Shown one piece after another: positions 5,599 through 10,438 of a DNA stretch of 24,000 nucleotides (the first letter of the stretch is position 1; every line of letters begins with the position of its first letter). Source of the DNA: Candidatus Woesearchaeota archaeon (GTDB lineage: Archaea > Nanobdellota > Nanobdellia > Pacearchaeales > GW2011-AR1); assembly GCA_964514585.1 (NCBI GenBank), contig CAZETU010000001.1, positions 120,901-144,900 on the forward strand, given 5' to 3'. A model generated the notes under the pieces. The model was not told the DNA's origin. It searched no databases and worked only from the letters and a program-made list of their open reading frames with translations. Both the position numbers and the translations under genes were made by a program.

Positions 5599-5620
5599 TT
5601 CAACGCTCCTGACAGGACTT
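5599..5620 (-). repeat. Exact 22-nt copy of the tRNA-Arg 3' end (no cloverleaf partner)
   Basis: ttcaacgctcctgacaggactt is identical to 5683-5704, at an offset of 84 nt. Confidence 0.9.
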
Positions 5621-5687
5621 CACTCACCAGAGGGATGTCAAATGGACGCGATCACCAGATCACCTACTGGGTGAACCTCAGGTTCAA

Positions 5688-5763
5688 CGCTCCTGACAGG
5701 ACTTGAACCTGCGACTTCTTCCTTAGGAGGGAAGCACTCTAATCCAAACTGAGCTACAGGAGC
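5688..5763 (-). tRNA. tRNA-Arg (anticodon CCT)
   Basis: The reverse complement folds as a cloverleaf: GCTCCTG TA GCTC AGTTTGGATTA GAGT G CTTCC CTCCTAA GGAAG AAGTC GCAGG TTCAAGT CCTGT CAGGAGC G. 76 nt, no encoded CCA. Confidence 0.9.
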
Positions 5764-5798: not shown

Positions 5799-5815
5799 AT
5801 GAGGGAAGGAGGATT
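5799..5815 (-). repeat. Exact 17-nt copy of the tRNA-Leu 3' end
   Basis: atgagggaaggaggatt is identical to 5898-5914, at an offset of 99 nt. Confidence 0.9.
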
Positions 5816-5898
5816 AAAAGTCCTTTACGAACTTTTCAGCAAATCTTTGATTTGCGCTTCAAGCTTCTCCGAAGCGCCGGTCGTTCGAATCCGACACA

Positions 5899-5982
5899 TG
5901 AGGGAAGGAGGATTCGAACCCCCGTAAGCATAAAGCTAACAGATCTTGAGTCTGCCCCGTTTGACCACTCCGGCATTCCCTC
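5899..5982 (-). tRNA. tRNA-Leu (anticodon CAA), long variable arm
   Basis: The reverse complement folds as GAGGGAA TG CCG GAGTGGTCAAA CGG G GCAGA CTCAAGA TCTGT TAGCTTTATGCTTAC GGGGG TTCGAAT CCTCC TTCCCTC A. 84 nt. Confidence 0.9.
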
Positions 5983-6166: not shown

Positions 6167-6290
6167 TCATCTATGCGCGGCCGTTGATTAGGATCGTTGC
6201 GTAGCTTAGGTTTTTGGTTGGGTATTAGGCGAGATAAAAACCTCAGCCTATCTTTCCTAAGAATGCTGATTAAGAGCCCGACAAAGCCCC

Positions 6291-7538
6291 TTAAATTGCC
6301 TTTGTGGGCGTTTTGTAGCACTTGTTATCTTCTAGTAGCCATTTCCAAACTGGCATCAGAATTATTTCCTTGCTTTCAATTTCAAATTTGTCCTCTTGAT
6401 TATGTGTTAAGATTAGCCCCTGTTTTAGCTTCAATTCATTCATTGCTTCCAGTAAGCCATTTATTTCCCTATCTCTATTTTCTTTATTAAAATCATAGCA
6501 AACCTGAATTGCTTGAATAACTTTTTCTTTCTCTTTAACTATAAAATCACATTCTTTGTCTTTTTGAAAATAAAATATTTCTTTGTATTTTTTTCTTAGA
6601 TTTAGGAATACTTCATTTTCTAGCATTTTCCCTTTATCTTTTGAAAAGGAAACTGAGTTAGCATAAGAGAGTCCATTATCTATGGAATAGACTTTTTTTG
6701 GATTAACTTGCTGTTTTTTGTAGGAGTAGCTAAATTTAGGTATTGTGAAAATTAAATAAGAATCCTCCAAGTAAGAAATATAGTCTATGATTGTTTGGAC
6801 TGATTTGACTTCTAACATTTTTTTAAGAGAGTTTGCGGAGAATTCTTTTCCAACATTACTTAATAAATAAATTGCTAATTTATTTAGTATAGCGGTATTT
6901 TTAATCCCAAACCTATTGACTATGTCTCTCATTAAAACATCTCTTAATAATTCATGCAAGAGAGTTTCGTCATCATCTTTTAAGAATTCTGGAAATCCTC
7001 CTTTGTATAAATAATCTGAATAAGATTTTTCATTTGGTTTCTGCTTGGAGAATCTTAAAAATTCAGTATAAGAAAATGGAAAGAGCTCGTAGCTTAAGTG
7101 TCTTCCAGTAAGTCTTGTCCCAAGTTCTCGGCTTAGAAGTGATGCATTTGAACCTGTTATCATTACTTTGTTTTTTCTGTCCACTAAATATCTAATGAAT
7201 TTTTCCCATTTGTCAATATTTTGAATCTCATCAAAAAAGTAAACTCCTCCAGCGCCATAAATTTCATTAAAAATTTCTTCTGCGATATTGAAATCTGTTA
7301 GCTTAAAACCTTCTAGTCTAGGGTCTTCAAGATTTAGATAATAAAAAACTTTTTGTCCTTTTAGAATTTGATTCAGAAGGGTGCTCTTTCCGCATCTTCT
7401 AATCCCTGCAACAACTAAGGCAAAGGACTTATTCAATTTTATTTCTTCAGTCTTTTCTCTAGAGATACCTTTTTCAGTTGATTCTACCCATTTTCTTTGT
7501 TCTTTTATTACTTTGGTTAGGTCTTCTTTTGTTATCAT
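6291..7538 (-). CDS. AAA+ ATPase with C-terminal DUF4143 domain (COG1373-type)
   Basis: Walker A GIRRCGKST and Walker B VYFFDEIQ are present. The AAA_14-type LTGRHLSYELFPFSYTEFL motif is also present. It is followed by the DUF4143-like region (…GKEFSANSLKKML…YLEDSYLIF…). Confidence 0.85.
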   Translation of the reverse strand: MITKEDLTKVIKEQRKWVESTEKGISREKTEEIKLNKSFALVVAGIRRCGKSTLLNQILKGQKVFYYLNLEDPRLEGFKLTDFNIAEEIFNEIYGAGGVYFFDEIQNIDKWEKFIRYLVDRKNKVMITGSNASLLSRELGTRLTGRHLSYELFPFSYTEFLRFSKQKPNEKSYSDYLYKGGFPEFLKDDDETLLHELLRDVLMRDIVNRFGIKNTAILNKLAIYLLSNVGKEFSANSLKKMLEVKSVQTIIDYISYLEDSYLIFTIPKFSYSYKKQQVNPKKVYSIDNGLSYANSVSFSKDKGKMLENEVFLNLRKKYKEIFYFQKDKECDFIVKEKEKVIQAIQVCYDFNKENRDREINGLLEAMNELKLKQGLILTHNQEDKFEIESKEIILMPVWKWLLEDNKCYKTPTKAI

Positions 7539-7558
7539 GTTTTATATAAGATATTTAA

Positions 7559-7618
7559 TTTTATAAAGGTTTCTATTGGGAATGGAAACTTCTTTCTATT
7601 GGGAATGGAAACCTTTAT
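7559..7618 (-). promoter_or_regulatory. TATA box plus two exact 20-nt direct repeats (period 23) framed by an 11-nt inverted repeat, upstream of the ATPase gene
   Basis: tttctattgggaatggaaac occurs at 7570-7589 and 7593-7612. The outer inverted repeat is ataaaggtttc (7563-7573) / gaaacctttat (7608-7618). On the minus strand cTTTATAAAA (7559-7568) is centred about 25 nt upstream of the ATG at 7538. Confidence 0.55.
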
Positions 7619-7753
7619 GTTAACTCTATCCCCTCCCCTAAGCCCCCCACGTCAGTACTATCATACATACATATTATGCCGACTGACTCTTTGGTAATTT
7701 TGTTTAATTTTCATCGACGATAAACTCTGTCCTACACCCAAGAAATCGGAGTC

Positions 7754-8383
7754 CTATTTTTGGGCTTTTTTTGCTAATTTTACTAGCTTATCTAGCCTCG
7801 ATTTTACATATCTTTTGTCAACTGCATCACCATATTTTTTATATTTTTTCACCTTATTTCTATCCGTCACAACGAAAAACCACTTATCATAATTTTCCAA
7901 AACTTTCAGCTTCTCTTTCATCCTACTAATTTTAGAAAAGATGGAACCCGTTTCAATTTCAATCGCAAATCTCTTTCCACGAATTTCAAAAACAATATCC
8001 GGTTTTTTAGTCACAAATAATTCCGTTTCAATCCCATTCTTTTCTAAGAACTCAGAAATATTCTTAGTTAGAAATAGGTGAGTAAAACTTTCATTATGTC
8101 TTGGGAGCAAAAGAAAGTCTTCCATTTTCCCATTCAAGAGATTTTTATATTTTTTAATTTGATAATCATCATTCAAGAGATATTTGACTTCGTGTTTGGT
8201 TATATTTTTCTTATGAAAATATCTTTTATCTGAATCAACTTTTATATTCACACTTCTTCGATAGGTTCCAATAGGCAGAGGTTTATATGGTTCTTCATCT
8301 TCAGTCTCTTCAGAGTCTAATTCTTCATTTTTATCATCCACAGCATATTCTAAATTTACTTTCCCAATTTTCTTCTTCGGCAT
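7754..8383 (-). CDS. Hypothetical protein with a PD-(D/E)XK-like nuclease-fold motif; probably longer at the N terminus (up to 8647)
   Basis: 209-aa ORF. The C-terminal half reads …THLFL…KKPDIVFEIRGKRFAIEIETGS…WFFVV, a D…ExE pattern in a beta-strand context. The acidic N-terminal region is low complexity. The frame stays open upstream (see findings). Confidence 0.55.
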   Translation of the reverse strand: MPKKKIGKVNLEYAVDDKNEELDSEETEDEEPYKPLPIGTYRRSVNIKVDSDKRYFHKKNITKHEVKYLLNDDYQIKKYKNLLNGKMEDFLLLPRHNESFTHLFLTKNISEFLEKNGIETELFVTKKPDIVFEIRGKRFAIEIETGSIFSKISRMKEKLKVLENYDKWFFVVTDRNKVKKYKKYGDAVDKRYVKSRLDKLVKLAKKAQK

Positions 8384-8622
8384 TTTCTTAATCCTTTCTT
8401 TTTCCTCAAGTTCCCATTTTTTATAATTTCTACGCGATTTGTAACGGAAAAATATTAAGAGGATTATTCCAAGAAAAGCAATAGAAAAAATAGTAATAAT
8501 AAAAATCGGATTAATAATGAAAGAGAATAACTTACTAGGAAATTCTTGAATGTTCTTTTTAATTTTTTGAAGTGGTTCTGCAAGAATGACTAAAAGAGCT
8601 CCTACGGATAATAAAAATGGAA

Positions 8623-9825
8623 CTAATGCGTCGTCAGAAGTTTCAATCTTATTGCCTCCTGAATATTTCCATAAACTCGATTAACATCCACCGTTATCGC
8701 AACCATCTGCCTTTTCATATTTTCAACCTGAACTTCTAGTAACTCTGACCTATTTTCTGATTTTGTAAGTCGCTTTTCTAATTCTGTTTTAGTTACATCA
8801 ATTAGTAAATCCTCTTCAGAAATTGTATCTCTCATCCCAAGCATTTCAGAATAATAATGAATCTTGTCAGATTTCTTCCATCCGAATCTGAATTTTAATG
8901 CTGATTCGGATTTGTATCTTGGCAACCAATAGCAACAACTGCAATGCCTAAAATCATACATTGTTAAATCAGAATATTTCTGGCCTGCCAAGCTTTTTTC
9001 ATCACCAAATAGTTTTTTAGCAACTCTTTTCAAATAACGATTCACGACTGGCGGACTAAATTTGAACAGATAATCTTCTGTATCTAATTCATTCTCCTTG
9101 ATGTATCTTTTAACTAATTCGGAACAAATCATCAGCTTAATCCTTCTTCCGAAAGTTTTGCTTATTTCATCCCGAATGTTCAACTCCTTAAAATCCTTAG
9201 ACAAATCAGAAACTTTCACATTCATTAATTCAGTTGGAGACCTAATTCCTGTATCAAATAAAAACATCACAATCGTCTTATATTTTGGGTTGCAGTTTTC
9301 GGAGAATAATTTTATTTGCTCTTCATTTAAATAAACCCATTTGGGTTTCTCTCTAGAAGTATCTAAGTAAGTTGTAATATCTTCAACCTCTTTTCCCGCC
9401 TTCCTTGCGACTTTTTGATACCAGTGCCAGAATGCCTTAAACATCTTGACAAAGTCTCGTGTCGCCTTATATTCGCGCCCGTCCTGCCGTCTTATCACTC
9501 CCTTTCTCATATCAACAAAGAATTGGCAGAGTTGTTGCTCTGTCAATTTAGTCAAGTCATCAACATCTAAAACTTCTTTAAATTTTCTAGTCAGAAAAGT
9601 TAGTCTGAGCCTAATCGTATTAAGTCTTATAAAACTTCTAGCACCTTTTTTCGAAGATAAGGAAGTGTTGATTCCAAGTTCCATATCAATCAAGTATTGT
9701 AGAATTATTGACGAGTTAGCTCTGGAGAGGTCAGGAATGCCCCCTGCTTCCTTGACTCTATTTTTCCAACGGGTCAGCGACCCTTCGTGGTTATAAGGAT
9801 CAATCTTCATGGTGTCAGTGTCCAC
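8623..9825 (-). CDS. Tyrosine recombinase / phage-type integrase
   Basis: 400 aa with a GTG start. It carries box I FDTGIRSPTEL (catalytic Arg), box II YDFRHCSCCYW (HxxR-like), and a C-terminal …SDKIHYYSEML that holds the candidate catalytic Tyr. Confidence 0.85.
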   Translation of the reverse strand: MDTDTMKIDPYNHEGSLTRWKNRVKEAGGIPDLSRANSSIILQYLIDMELGINTSLSSKKGARSFIRLNTIRLRLTFLTRKFKEVLDVDDLTKLTEQQLCQFFVDMRKGVIRRQDGREYKATRDFVKMFKAFWHWYQKVARKAGKEVEDITTYLDTSREKPKWVYLNEEQIKLFSENCNPKYKTIVMFLFDTGIRSPTELMNVKVSDLSKDFKELNIRDEISKTFGRRIKLMICSELVKRYIKENELDTEDYLFKFSPPVVNRYLKRVAKKLFGDEKSLAGQKYSDLTMYDFRHCSCCYWLPRYKSESALKFRFGWKKSDKIHYYSEMLGMRDTISEEDLLIDVTKTELEKRLTKSENRSELLEVQVENMKRQMVAITVDVNRVYGNIQEAIRLKLLTTH

Positions 9826-9967
9826 ATGGACGCGTTATTTAATAATTGTCGAGAACGAAAGAATATAATAGACTGGACAGGACATCTGCTAATTCTTGTT
9901 TTTTTCTGTTTCATTTAGTTTATTTCTAAACAAAAAGTAGTCCCACCAAGATGCCAAAAAGGTAGAA

Positions 9968-10079
9968 TGCGCGGGCGGGGACTCGAACCCCGGTCATTTG
10001 GTCTCTTCATTGAAGGCAATAGATATTCCATCAACTAAACATTTGGAAGCCAAATATTCTGCCACTAAACTACCCACGC
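9968..10079 (-). tRNA. tRNA-Gly (anticodon TCC) with a 41-nt intron at the canonical 37/38 position
   Basis: The reverse complement folds as GCGTGGG TA GTTT AGTGGCA GAAT A TTTGG CTTCCA[intron]A CCAAA TGAC CGGGG TTCGAGT CCCCG CCCGCGC A. The exons sum to 71 nt. Confidence 0.85.
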
Positions 10080-10102: not shown

Positions 10103-10112
10103 GTTTTAAAGT
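10103..10112 (-). promoter_or_regulatory. TATA box for tRNA-Gly (overlaps the HNH gene stop codon)
   Basis: The minus strand reads aaCTTTAAAAcc, centred about 28 nt upstream of the tRNA 5' end. Confidence 0.35.
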
Positions 10113-10438
10113 TTATTGTTTTTGAAATGTTTTTTCCGATGACAGTTGGAACAAAGGGCCTCACACTTATCTAATTCAGACTTTATTCTTTCGATAGAAA
10201 ATCCATCAGCAACCATTTTAGAAATACCCTCTTCTTTCTTTCCAGTTTTATGATGAAAATCAATAGTAGCAGGATGATCTTCTCCACACAAACAACATCG
10301 CAAAGAGGATTTATGTTTCCGAAACCACGCCCGAATTTCATTTTTACGCTTCTTAACATGGGCCTTTTCTGAAGCTTTATTATTCGCATACCACCTACGC
10401 CTACAATCCCTTCTTTTTTCTAAATCCCTGTATGGCAT
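10106..10438 (-). CDS. Small HNH endonuclease-family protein
   Basis: 110 aa with CCLCG…IDFHHK…N…CSNCHRKKH, i.e. a CxxC…HH…CxxCH zinc/HNH signature. The N terminus is basic. Confidence 0.75.
   Translation of the reverse strand: MPYRDLEKRRDCRRRWYANNKASEKAHVKKRKNEIRAWFRKHKSSLRCCLCGEDHPATIDFHHKTGKKEEGISKMVADGFSIERIKSELDKCEALCSNCHRKKHFKNNKL

Follow-up and report, generated by a model that had tools for sequence, protein, structure and literature searches.

The 24,000-nt stretch of contig CAZETU010000001.1 analyzed here, referred to below as the window, carries at positions 6174-9977 a set of three genes that we interpret as an integrative element of about 3.8 kb, which would have entered the 3' end of a tRNA-Gly(UCC) gene through site-specific recombination. 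We put the probability of this reading at roughly 0.8. The window lies on contig C1 of a metagenome-assembled genome (MAG) of 1.04 Mb, which consists of 18 contigs, is ~90% complete, and belongs to a Pacearchaeota-type DPANN archaeon. A first-pass annotation, made from the DNA letters and a list of open reading frames (ORFs), had already proposed an element of about this size, and that proposal is supported by the evidence given below.

The target gene, tRNA-Gly(UCC), occupies positions 9968-10079 on the minus strand and contains a 41-nt intron, owing to which it is not called by ARAGORN under default settings. It is recovered by Rfam (RF00005, 55.3 bits) and, when introns are allowed, by ARAGORN as tRNA-Gly(tcc). 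The 3' end of the tRNA abuts the element, and the integrase gene begins 142 nt from it at a GTG codon, or 157 nt from it if the likely ATG is used. All three ORFs of the element are on the minus strand, at 8623-9825 (400 aa), 7754-8383 (listed as 209 aa), and 6291-7538 (415 aa). Outward from the tRNA, the order is attL, an arm of ~80 nt, the integrase gene, the membrane-protein gene, a 125-nt block, a promoter and operator, the ATPase gene, and attR. Rfam, ARAGORN, and the ORF list confirm what had been noted at first pass, namely that a tyrosine recombinase gene lies 142 bp from tRNA-Gly and that the cargo ORFs share one strand. The description of the recombinase as facing the 3' end of the tRNA was loose wording, as the two genes are co-oriented and the integrase gene reads away from the tRNA.

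Evidence that this segment is an insertion comes from the neighborhoods of 5S, tRNA-Arg, and tRNA-Leu, which were compared across 16 congeneric species. The genes for an ABC transporter, 5S, tRNA-Arg/Leu, tRNA-Gly(tcc), and SecF/SecD follow one another in an order that is conserved in the genus. Empty sites, for which a search in related genomes had been suggested at first pass, were found in at least nine species, where tRNA-Gly is located 39-150 nt from tRNA-Leu or tRNA-Arg. Between tRNA-Leu and tRNA-Gly, G014 has 39 nt and G010 has 86 nt (both in the gene orientation of the window), as compared to 3984 nt in the window, and similarly short gaps are present in G005, G009, G011, G017, G003, and G023. 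Based on this difference in spacing, the segment is an insertion.

The same site is occupied by other genes in two relatives. In G022, it holds an integrase that is 77% identical to that of the window, two unidentified genes, and a reverse transcriptase with RVT_1 and HTH_40 domains. The G022 element is bounded by an exact 13-nt repeat of the tRNA-Gly end, with terminal inverted repeats of ~30 nt beside each att copy, and the contig end that bears the element overlaps the contig that carries tRNA-Leu. The reverse transcriptase of G022 (488 aa, with the HTH_40 domain; L076, G022:C9, 5457-6923) may be of the defense type. In G013, the site holds a homologue of the C-terminal domain of the membrane protein, a Fic gene, and a 58%-identical ATPase gene on the opposite strand, and there is no integrase. 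An att copy was looked for at this integrase-less G013 island and none was found.

The ends of the element were located by a search for repeats of the tRNA terminus. The attL core (9967-9977) comprises the last 10 nt of the tRNA and one downstream base, and the G022 sister element repeats the same tRNA end over 13 nt. Within the 24-kb window, the terminal 10-mer TGCGCGGGCG (9968-9977) has a single other match with at most one mismatch, which is TGCGCGGCCG at 6174-6183. Shuffled sequences gave a mean of 0.07 matches to the tRNA-end 10-mer, and two matches were obtained in 0/100 shuffles, so the 9/10 boundary repeat pointed out at first pass held up. The agreement becomes 10/11 once the preceding A is counted, which gives a probable attR at 6173-6183. 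This repeat is 108 nt beyond the stop codon of the ATPase gene in a spacer with 29% GC, and its position fits that of the far-end repeat of G022. On the tRNA strand, the exact block of attR is CCGCGCAT, 8 nt in length, with the single mismatch at the element-side edge; eight exact nucleotides would be a normal size for the overlap region of a tyrosine recombinase. Between 5300 and 6400, no partial tRNAs or further RNA genes were found besides 5S, tRNA-Arg, and tRNA-Leu.

The left end of the element is firm. Between the tRNA and the integrase gene is a conserved arm (9888-9966, minus strand), of which ~80 nt can be aligned to the G022 element with a score of 93. Similar sequence is also found behind tRNA-Glu(ctc) in the metagenome contig L086, in host contig C5 (G000:C5), and in G005. 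The arm probably contains integrase-binding sites and a promoter.

The integrase gene (8623-9825, minus strand) encodes 400 aa when read from the GTG; the real start is likely the ATG at 9810, because the family alignment points there. The protein matches the phrog_1 "integrase" profile (7.8e-17) and has no match in Pfam, PF00589 (Phage_integrase) included, at E<=0.01. The NCBIfam XerA model returns 1.5e-11 and 44 bits, and its curated cut-off of 220 is not reached. An AlphaFold2 (AF2) model built from 35 family members has a predicted local distance difference test (pLDDT) score of 81, and a Foldseek search with this model retrieved Cre, Tn1549 Int, XerA/XerH, lambda Int, and IntI with E-values of 3e-8 to 3e-6, a probability of 1.00, and 300-350 aligned columns. 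Across the 35 sequences, the residues R195, K223/K230, Y290, R293, W316, H323, Y324, and Y325 are invariant, the catalytic residues being assigned by motif position without structural superposition. They would fit the catalytic set except that the HxxR motif reads YxxR, with its first His replaced by the invariant Y290. The protein is a divergent tyrosine recombinase, and the model shows its two-domain fold, with a core-binding and a catalytic domain. The ORF is intact and lies wholly within the element.

This integrase family is widespread in MAGs of Pacearchaeota and Woesearchaeota. It was found in 32/49 genomes of the genus, and the host genome itself contains four full copies and two fragments. 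One host copy is located 84 nt behind tRNA-Tyr beside a DNA methylase gene, and the others adjoin a RelA/SpoT-like gene, a HEPN and nucleotidyltransferase pair, a DUF2779 gene, and two methylase genes. For comparison, 80 related integrase loci were collected from public MAGs whose records are labeled Pacearchaeota, Woesearchaeota, or Nanoarchaeota archaeon. A co-oriented tRNA gene is present within 400 nt upstream in 33 of the 60 loci with enough upstream sequence (median distance 74 nt), and the targeted tRNAs are those for Asp, Glu, Gly, Ser, Tyr, Leu, and Gln. The closest integrases, with 74-83% identity, are found at different tRNAs (Glu-ctc, Gly-gcc, and Gly-tcc), with the arm staying similar. 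No relatives of the integrase were found among PLSDB plasmids, INPHARED phages, or IMG/VR viral contigs, an exact protein look-up returned no other record, and no paper on the family was found in the literature. One locus, G005/L088, was considered as a two-gene "minimal element" and dropped, as a possible far repeat lies 6.6 kb away, beyond an ABC transporter.

The second gene of the element was listed as a 209-aa ORF with an ATG start, and our analysis indicates that this call misses its N-terminal part. Upstream of the listed ATG, the reading frame continues for 99 codons without a stop and without an ATG, GTG, or TTG, and the extended part is kept in frame in G005, G018, G002, G009, and G043. 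The start codon appears to be ATT at 8645-8647, which lies 7 nt after a GGAGG; G005 and G043 also have ATT at this codon, and G002 and G009 have GTG. Because the frame is conserved upstream and a GTG occupies the same codon in G002 and G009, the protein is taken to be 297 aa long and to start at 8647 (7754-8647, minus strand). Its gene and that of the integrase overlap by 25 nt. A conserved non-canonical start within the end of the integrase gene suggests that translation may be low and coupled. For annotation, the lesson is that the "209-aa" gene was mis-called owing to its ATT start.

Hydropathy and an AF2 model predict two transmembrane helices in the 297-aa protein (residues ~7-24 and 40-68), with basic residues and then an acidic disordered linker after them. 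The pLDDT of the model is 86 overall and above 90 in the C-terminal domain. In a Foldseek search, nearly all top matches of this domain are PD-(D/E)xK proteins (Cdn1, VC1899, Bax1, OkrAI, Hjc, Can2, VRR-NUC, and RecU), and E186, H190, D217, E230, E232, and K246 are conserved across 45 homologues. Weak CoiA_nuc matches were obtained for 23 of the 45 family members; a profile search of solved structures gave nothing meaningful, and PADLOC had no match for the protein. In the model, the C-terminal domain has a restriction endonuclease-like, PD-(D/E)xK, fold. The likeness to Hjc/CoiA-type domains extends over residues ~188-277, which match Hjc with a probability of 0.99 and a TM-score of 0.43-0.47 (target-normalized) over ~80 columns, with conserved acidic residues. 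Unlike those domains, the protein has no significant sequence match to solved structures, an extra beta-rich subdomain, a membrane anchor, an ExE motif, and a displaced lysine. Nor is it a stand-alone soluble dimeric resolvase as Hjc is. Of the first-pass description as a putative membrane-anchored nuclease of 209/297 aa, for which structure prediction and Foldseek had been proposed, the anchor and the nuclease fold were found by these means, and the assignment as cargo did not stand.

Instead, by its gene context, the membrane protein is a conserved, translationally coupled partner of the integrase. It occurs behind the integrase in G005, where the tRNA is tRNA-Glu(ctc), in G002, where it is tRNA-Gly(gcc), and in G018. 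Metagenome contigs also pair it with the integrase, beside Fic or other neighbors. In five elements, the stop codon of its gene is followed by a conserved non-coding block (7630-7753, minus strand), aligned with 75% mean column identity. This 125-nt block is more conserved than the neighboring coding sequence and holds an invariant 30-mer and a GTCAGT...ACTGAC hairpin. The block is a candidate terminator, a candidate site acted on by the proteins of the element, or a candidate small RNA.

The C-terminal domain of the membrane protein also terminates much longer proteins of 880-1033 aa. One of these, a 974-aa protein encoded on host contig C3, has an N-terminal PrgI (VirB3-like) domain and a P-loop_TraG/DUF87/AAA_10 ATPase, and its last 160 aa are 46% identical to the C-terminal domain of the membrane protein. 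Such long VirB4-like forms are present in many genomes of the genus, often within a few kb of an integrase of the same family. Like these VirB3-VirB4 (PrgI-PrgJ-like) fusions, the 297-aa protein starts with a two-helix membrane hairpin. Unlike them, it has a 40-aa acidic linker in place of the ATPase of ~700 aa, and neither a P-loop domain nor a PrgI Pfam match was found in it. By sequence, it therefore looks like the two ends of a VirB3-VirB4-nuclease fusion minus the ATPase. We also considered the idea that the short form needs a resident long form, which is unsupported, as G005, G018, and G043, all incomplete MAGs, show the short form only.

Contig C3 itself has 34.4% GC and one tRNA in 145 kb, and it contains two integrase paralogues and two VirB3-VirB4-nuclease fusions (L007, L008, L089, and L090), together with restriction-modification methylases, HEPN/MNT genes, and a RelA/SpoT-like gene. 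It looks like a large mobile or defense-rich region.

The third gene (6291-7538, minus strand) encodes an ATPase with an AAA_14 domain (Pfam, 2.6e-36) and a DUF4143 domain (1.2e-22), which confirms the COG1373-type assignment made at first pass. DUF4143 has been placed in the PD-(D/E)XK superfamily (PMC3424549). Although no named system had been recognized here, a PADLOC run, as had been suggested, identified the protein as a full-length match to the candidate PDC-S01 (PDLC04787, 3.9e-113), in which residues 23-404 align with positions 9-409 of the 412 in the hidden Markov model. PDC-S01 is a candidate whose validation is pending; it is the fourth commonest "defense" match in prokaryotes and is enriched in archaea (PMC12988326). 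SoFic, AbiE, and several unvalidated candidates of this sort are reportedly enriched in DPANN archaea (PMC12988326). The ATPase is single-copy in the host genome.

Upstream of the ATPase gene is an operator-like site (7563-7618) that consists of two exact 20-nt direct repeats (7570-7589 and 7593-7612) within a 26-nt inverted repeat, and which abuts a TATA-like box ~25 nt before the ATG. The "iteron-like operator" of the first-pass annotation corresponds to this site. The same motif is found upstream of an 80%-identical ATPase gene on contig G013:C22, and because of this conservation the operator belongs to the ATPase's own cassette. The window copy shares the two-domain architecture of PDC-S01 and is set apart from other copies only by this conserved two-repeat operator and by its ride on an integrase element.

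Several observations count against the proposed integrative element or against parts of it. The far repeat is short, with 10/11 matches and 8 nt exact, and a terminal inverted repeat like that of G022 was not found at attR, where the alignment score was 19 against a shuffle mean of 21 and a motif search performed at chance. For these two reasons, the right end at 6174-6183 is probable, and the window copy may be decaying or immobile. The empty sites come from other species, their boundaries are resolved to ~200 nt only, and no empty site from the same species was seen. The composition of the segment deviates mildly at most: the AT-richness noted at first pass by eye is real, with 32.6% GC in the element against 37.2 ± 3.1% in genome windows of the same size, but this corresponds to the 9th percentile, and tetranucleotide usage is no outlier with respect to the genome. 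The segment is possibly composite, as the parts of the metagenome contig L086 described below differ in history and G013 keeps the 58%-identical ATPase at the site without an integrase. For the membrane protein, the Foldseek E-values of the nuclease domain are marginal (1e-3 to 0.2), and the third catalytic motif reads E-I-E (ExE) rather than (D/E)xK, with the conserved lysine K246 located elsewhere. In addition, the long VirB4 form was not found in G005, G018, and G043, incomplete MAGs that have the short form, and PDC-S01 is without experimental proof of defense (PMC12988326).

Some of these points would also fit a fixed remnant, that is, a true insertion that has lost its mobility, with its genes kept for a benefit to the host in defense or membrane function and its integrase domesticated or idle. 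We regard this as the most serious of the alternatives, and still as rather unlikely. An imperfect attR that has no terminal inverted repeat and a largely ameliorated composition would be expected of such a remnant, and the flanks and the ATPase gene are identical in an independent metagenome contig (L086). On the other hand, the integrase and membrane-protein genes are intact and keep all family-invariant residues, and the arm at attL closely resembles that of G022. The sister copies at several tRNAs in close relatives also imply recent movement of the family.

The metagenome contig L086 (European Nucleotide Archive accession ERZ27316021) bears on whether the three genes arrived together. From window position 1 to ~7900, L086 is 100% identical to the window, the ATPase gene included; past ~7900, in the remainder of the membrane-protein gene and in the integrase gene, stretches of 100 nt are 56-91% identical. 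The integrase of L086 is 82% identical to that of the window. The first 55 nt of L086 are identical to the end of host contig C5, a sequence made up of the tRNA-Glu(ctc) 3' end and a further 43 nt. This could be due to recombination between sister elements within the gene for the membrane protein, or L086 could be partly chimeric. Whichever of these holds, there is a second related element in the population, and the history of the ATPase gene is separate from that of the integrase module. The 55-nt sequence is an overlap of three contig ends (L086 1-55, G000:C5 74849-74903, and G000:C9 1-55), and contig C7 (G000:C7 1-248) starts inside a copy of the membrane-protein gene. A second integrase element, associated with tRNA-Glu(ctc), breaks the host assembly.

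A separate history could mean that the segment is a composite island, in which an integrase and membrane-protein unit was placed beside an older, integrase-less PDC-S01 cassette, the repeat at 6174-6183 is an older scar, and the three genes never moved jointly. Such a composite would be consistent with L086, which starts with a tRNA-Glu(ctc) end, is 100% identical up to ~7900, and is 82-91% identical in the integrase and membrane-protein genes. It would also be consistent with the G013 site, where the C-domain homologue, Fic, and the ATPase occur with no integrase, with the tandem accretion marked by three 11-nt repeats at tRNA-Asp in G013:C22, and with the absence of an inverted repeat on the attR side. 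However, no copy of the att core is found between the membrane-protein gene and the ATPase gene, the sole one-mismatch copy being that at 6174. The switch point in L086 (~8300-7900) falls within the coding sequence of the membrane protein, which fits homologous recombination better than stacking, and L086 could be partly an assembly chimera. We consider a composite origin unlikely, and less probable than the fixed remnant.

The accretion at tRNA-Asp can be seen at locus L081 (G013:C22; 4762-4772, 6439-6449, 7607-7617, and 10398-10469), which contains three 11-nt copies of the tRNA-Asp 3' end and an integrase fragment. The copies and the fragment indicate that insertions are stacked at this tRNA. 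The innermost unit consists of an integrase and a PDC-S01 ATPase only, and its integrase is inverted with respect to the usual layout.

The first-pass annotation had joined the ATPase and the nuclease as one cargo module, which would make the membrane-anchored nuclease and the AAA+ ATPase a two-gene defense or maintenance system. The two genes are adjacent and co-oriented in both the window and L086, and a weaker pairing, with Fic in between, is seen in G013. Despite this, we hold a two-gene system to be very improbable. The ATPase was found in 0/80 of the related integrase loci, whereas the membrane protein is present in 22/71, and in G013:C22 the 80%-identical ATPase occurs beside a 52%-identical integrase, between 11-nt repeats of the tRNA-Asp end and without the membrane protein. 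The ATPase has a nuclease domain of its own in DUF4143 and its own conserved promoter and operator, and it is counted by PADLOC as a single-gene candidate. Moreover, the membrane-protein gene overlaps the integrase gene and not the ATPase gene. These comparisons show that the ATPase is independent cargo, unpaired with the membrane protein, and the membrane protein probably does not form a defense pair with it.

That no element exists at all, and that an ancestral gene block was instead lost in the relatives, is hardly credible: the divergence of the integrase from that of G022 (77% identity) is near that of the flanking SecF (74%) and ABC ATPase (77%), but the block is absent from at least nine species, the closest (G005 and G023) included, three occupied sites carry different genes, and an integrase beside a tRNA with tRNA-end repeats is an insertion signature.

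With the integrative element as the preferred reading, our current hypothesis for its origin is as follows. The element would have come in through recombination at a specific site, namely the final 8-11 bases of the tRNA-Gly(UCC) gene, with the integrase cutting within CCGCGCAT and the tRNA end being restored by the element. Its core would consist of the integrase and the membrane protein, and the distal region would serve as a slot for exchangeable single-gene cargo, occupied here by PDC-S01 and elsewhere at this site by a reverse transcriptase or by Fic and PDC-S01. The membrane protein could be a short, ATPase-less relative of the VirB3-VirB4-nuclease fusions of larger sister elements. Because of this relationship it most likely acts on DNA at the membrane when DNA is transferred or enters, either mobilizing or excluding it. 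A bolder proposal, which we offer only as a speculation that is more likely wrong than right, is that archaea have a counterpart to integrative and mobilizable elements (IMEs), with the integrase and the membrane nuclease as its core. Such tiny tRNA-targeting elements might shuttle single-gene defense cassettes (PDC-S01, Fic, and reverse transcriptases) among DPANN archaea, and the 297-aa protein might dock excised DNA onto the conjugation-like machines of larger sister elements or block their entry, with the hairpin block as its site.

The closest known mode of integration is the pNOB8-type, or type II, integration of Sulfolobus plasmids, in which an intact, non-partitioned tyrosine integrase acts at tRNA genes. 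As in that type, the whole integrase gene is beside the attachment site, the 3' part of a tRNA gene is the target, the insert is delimited by a short direct repeat of the tRNA terminus, and integration would regenerate the tRNA. In contrast to it, the integrase has no sequence relative in PLSDB, INPHARED, or IMG/VR, no Pfam Phage_integrase match, and YxxR in place of HxxR, and the element is 3.8 kb in length, lacks replication or conjugation genes, and resides in a mesophilic DPANN archaeon. It differs from the partitioning SSV-type elements in that its integrase is unsplit and lies wholly inside the element.

The element also resembles the bacterial tRNA islands and IMEs that carry defense cargo, as it has an integrase at a tRNA, has variable cargo at a hotspot, and is small and without transfer machinery of its own. 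As in IMEs, one accessory core gene is related to a component of a transfer machine. Unlike IMEs, the element has no relaxase or recognizable oriT, its mobilization is putative, and its accessory protein is a membrane-anchored protein of predicted PD-(D/E)xK fold related to the termini of VirB3-VirB4-like fusions. The unusual parts are the integrase family, the coupled VirB3/4-related partner, and the ATT start; as a type of element it is ordinary.

The genomes of DPANN archaea are tiny, with few CRISPR or restriction systems, and are reported to contain many compact single-gene candidates for defense (PMC12988326). The locus is one likely vehicle for the spread of their single-gene defense candidates, given that the distal slot differs by species at the same tRNA. 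It further offers an integrase family whose attachment sites are defined, a membrane-anchored protein of nuclease-like fold that is linked by sequence to a conjugation-like ATPase, and a copy of PDC-S01 with a clear operator.

Several smaller features were observed around the element. On the 5' side of tRNA-Gly, positions 10106-10438 contain a gene for a 110-aa HNH endonuclease (phrog_2255, 3.7e-22). Among the 16 relatives, an HNH gene next to tRNA-Gly was found in G023 only, and because G023 also carries it across the tRNA, the gene is outside the insert; it may be a selfish gene in its own right. Beyond the far end of the element, the 22-nt 3' end of tRNA-Arg(CCT) is exactly repeated 84 nt downstream (5599-5620 and 5683-5704), and the 17-nt 3' end of tRNA-Leu(CAA) is exactly repeated 99 nt downstream (5799-5815 and 5898-5914). 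By eye, the arm motif of the tRNA-Gly element is not shared by these mini-modules behind tRNA-Arg and tRNA-Leu. In G022, ~16 nt of the tRNA-Leu 5' end are duplicated ~90 nt upstream, beside the attR of the tRNA-Gly element (L045, G022:C32, 9358-9375 and 9449-9468). Lastly, the order and orientation of tRNA-Arg, tRNA-Leu, and tRNA-Gly between the ABC transporter and SecFD vary by species among the relatives (L031-L046), with inversions and swaps within a few hundred bases. This variation suggests that recombination has occurred at these tRNAs repeatedly.

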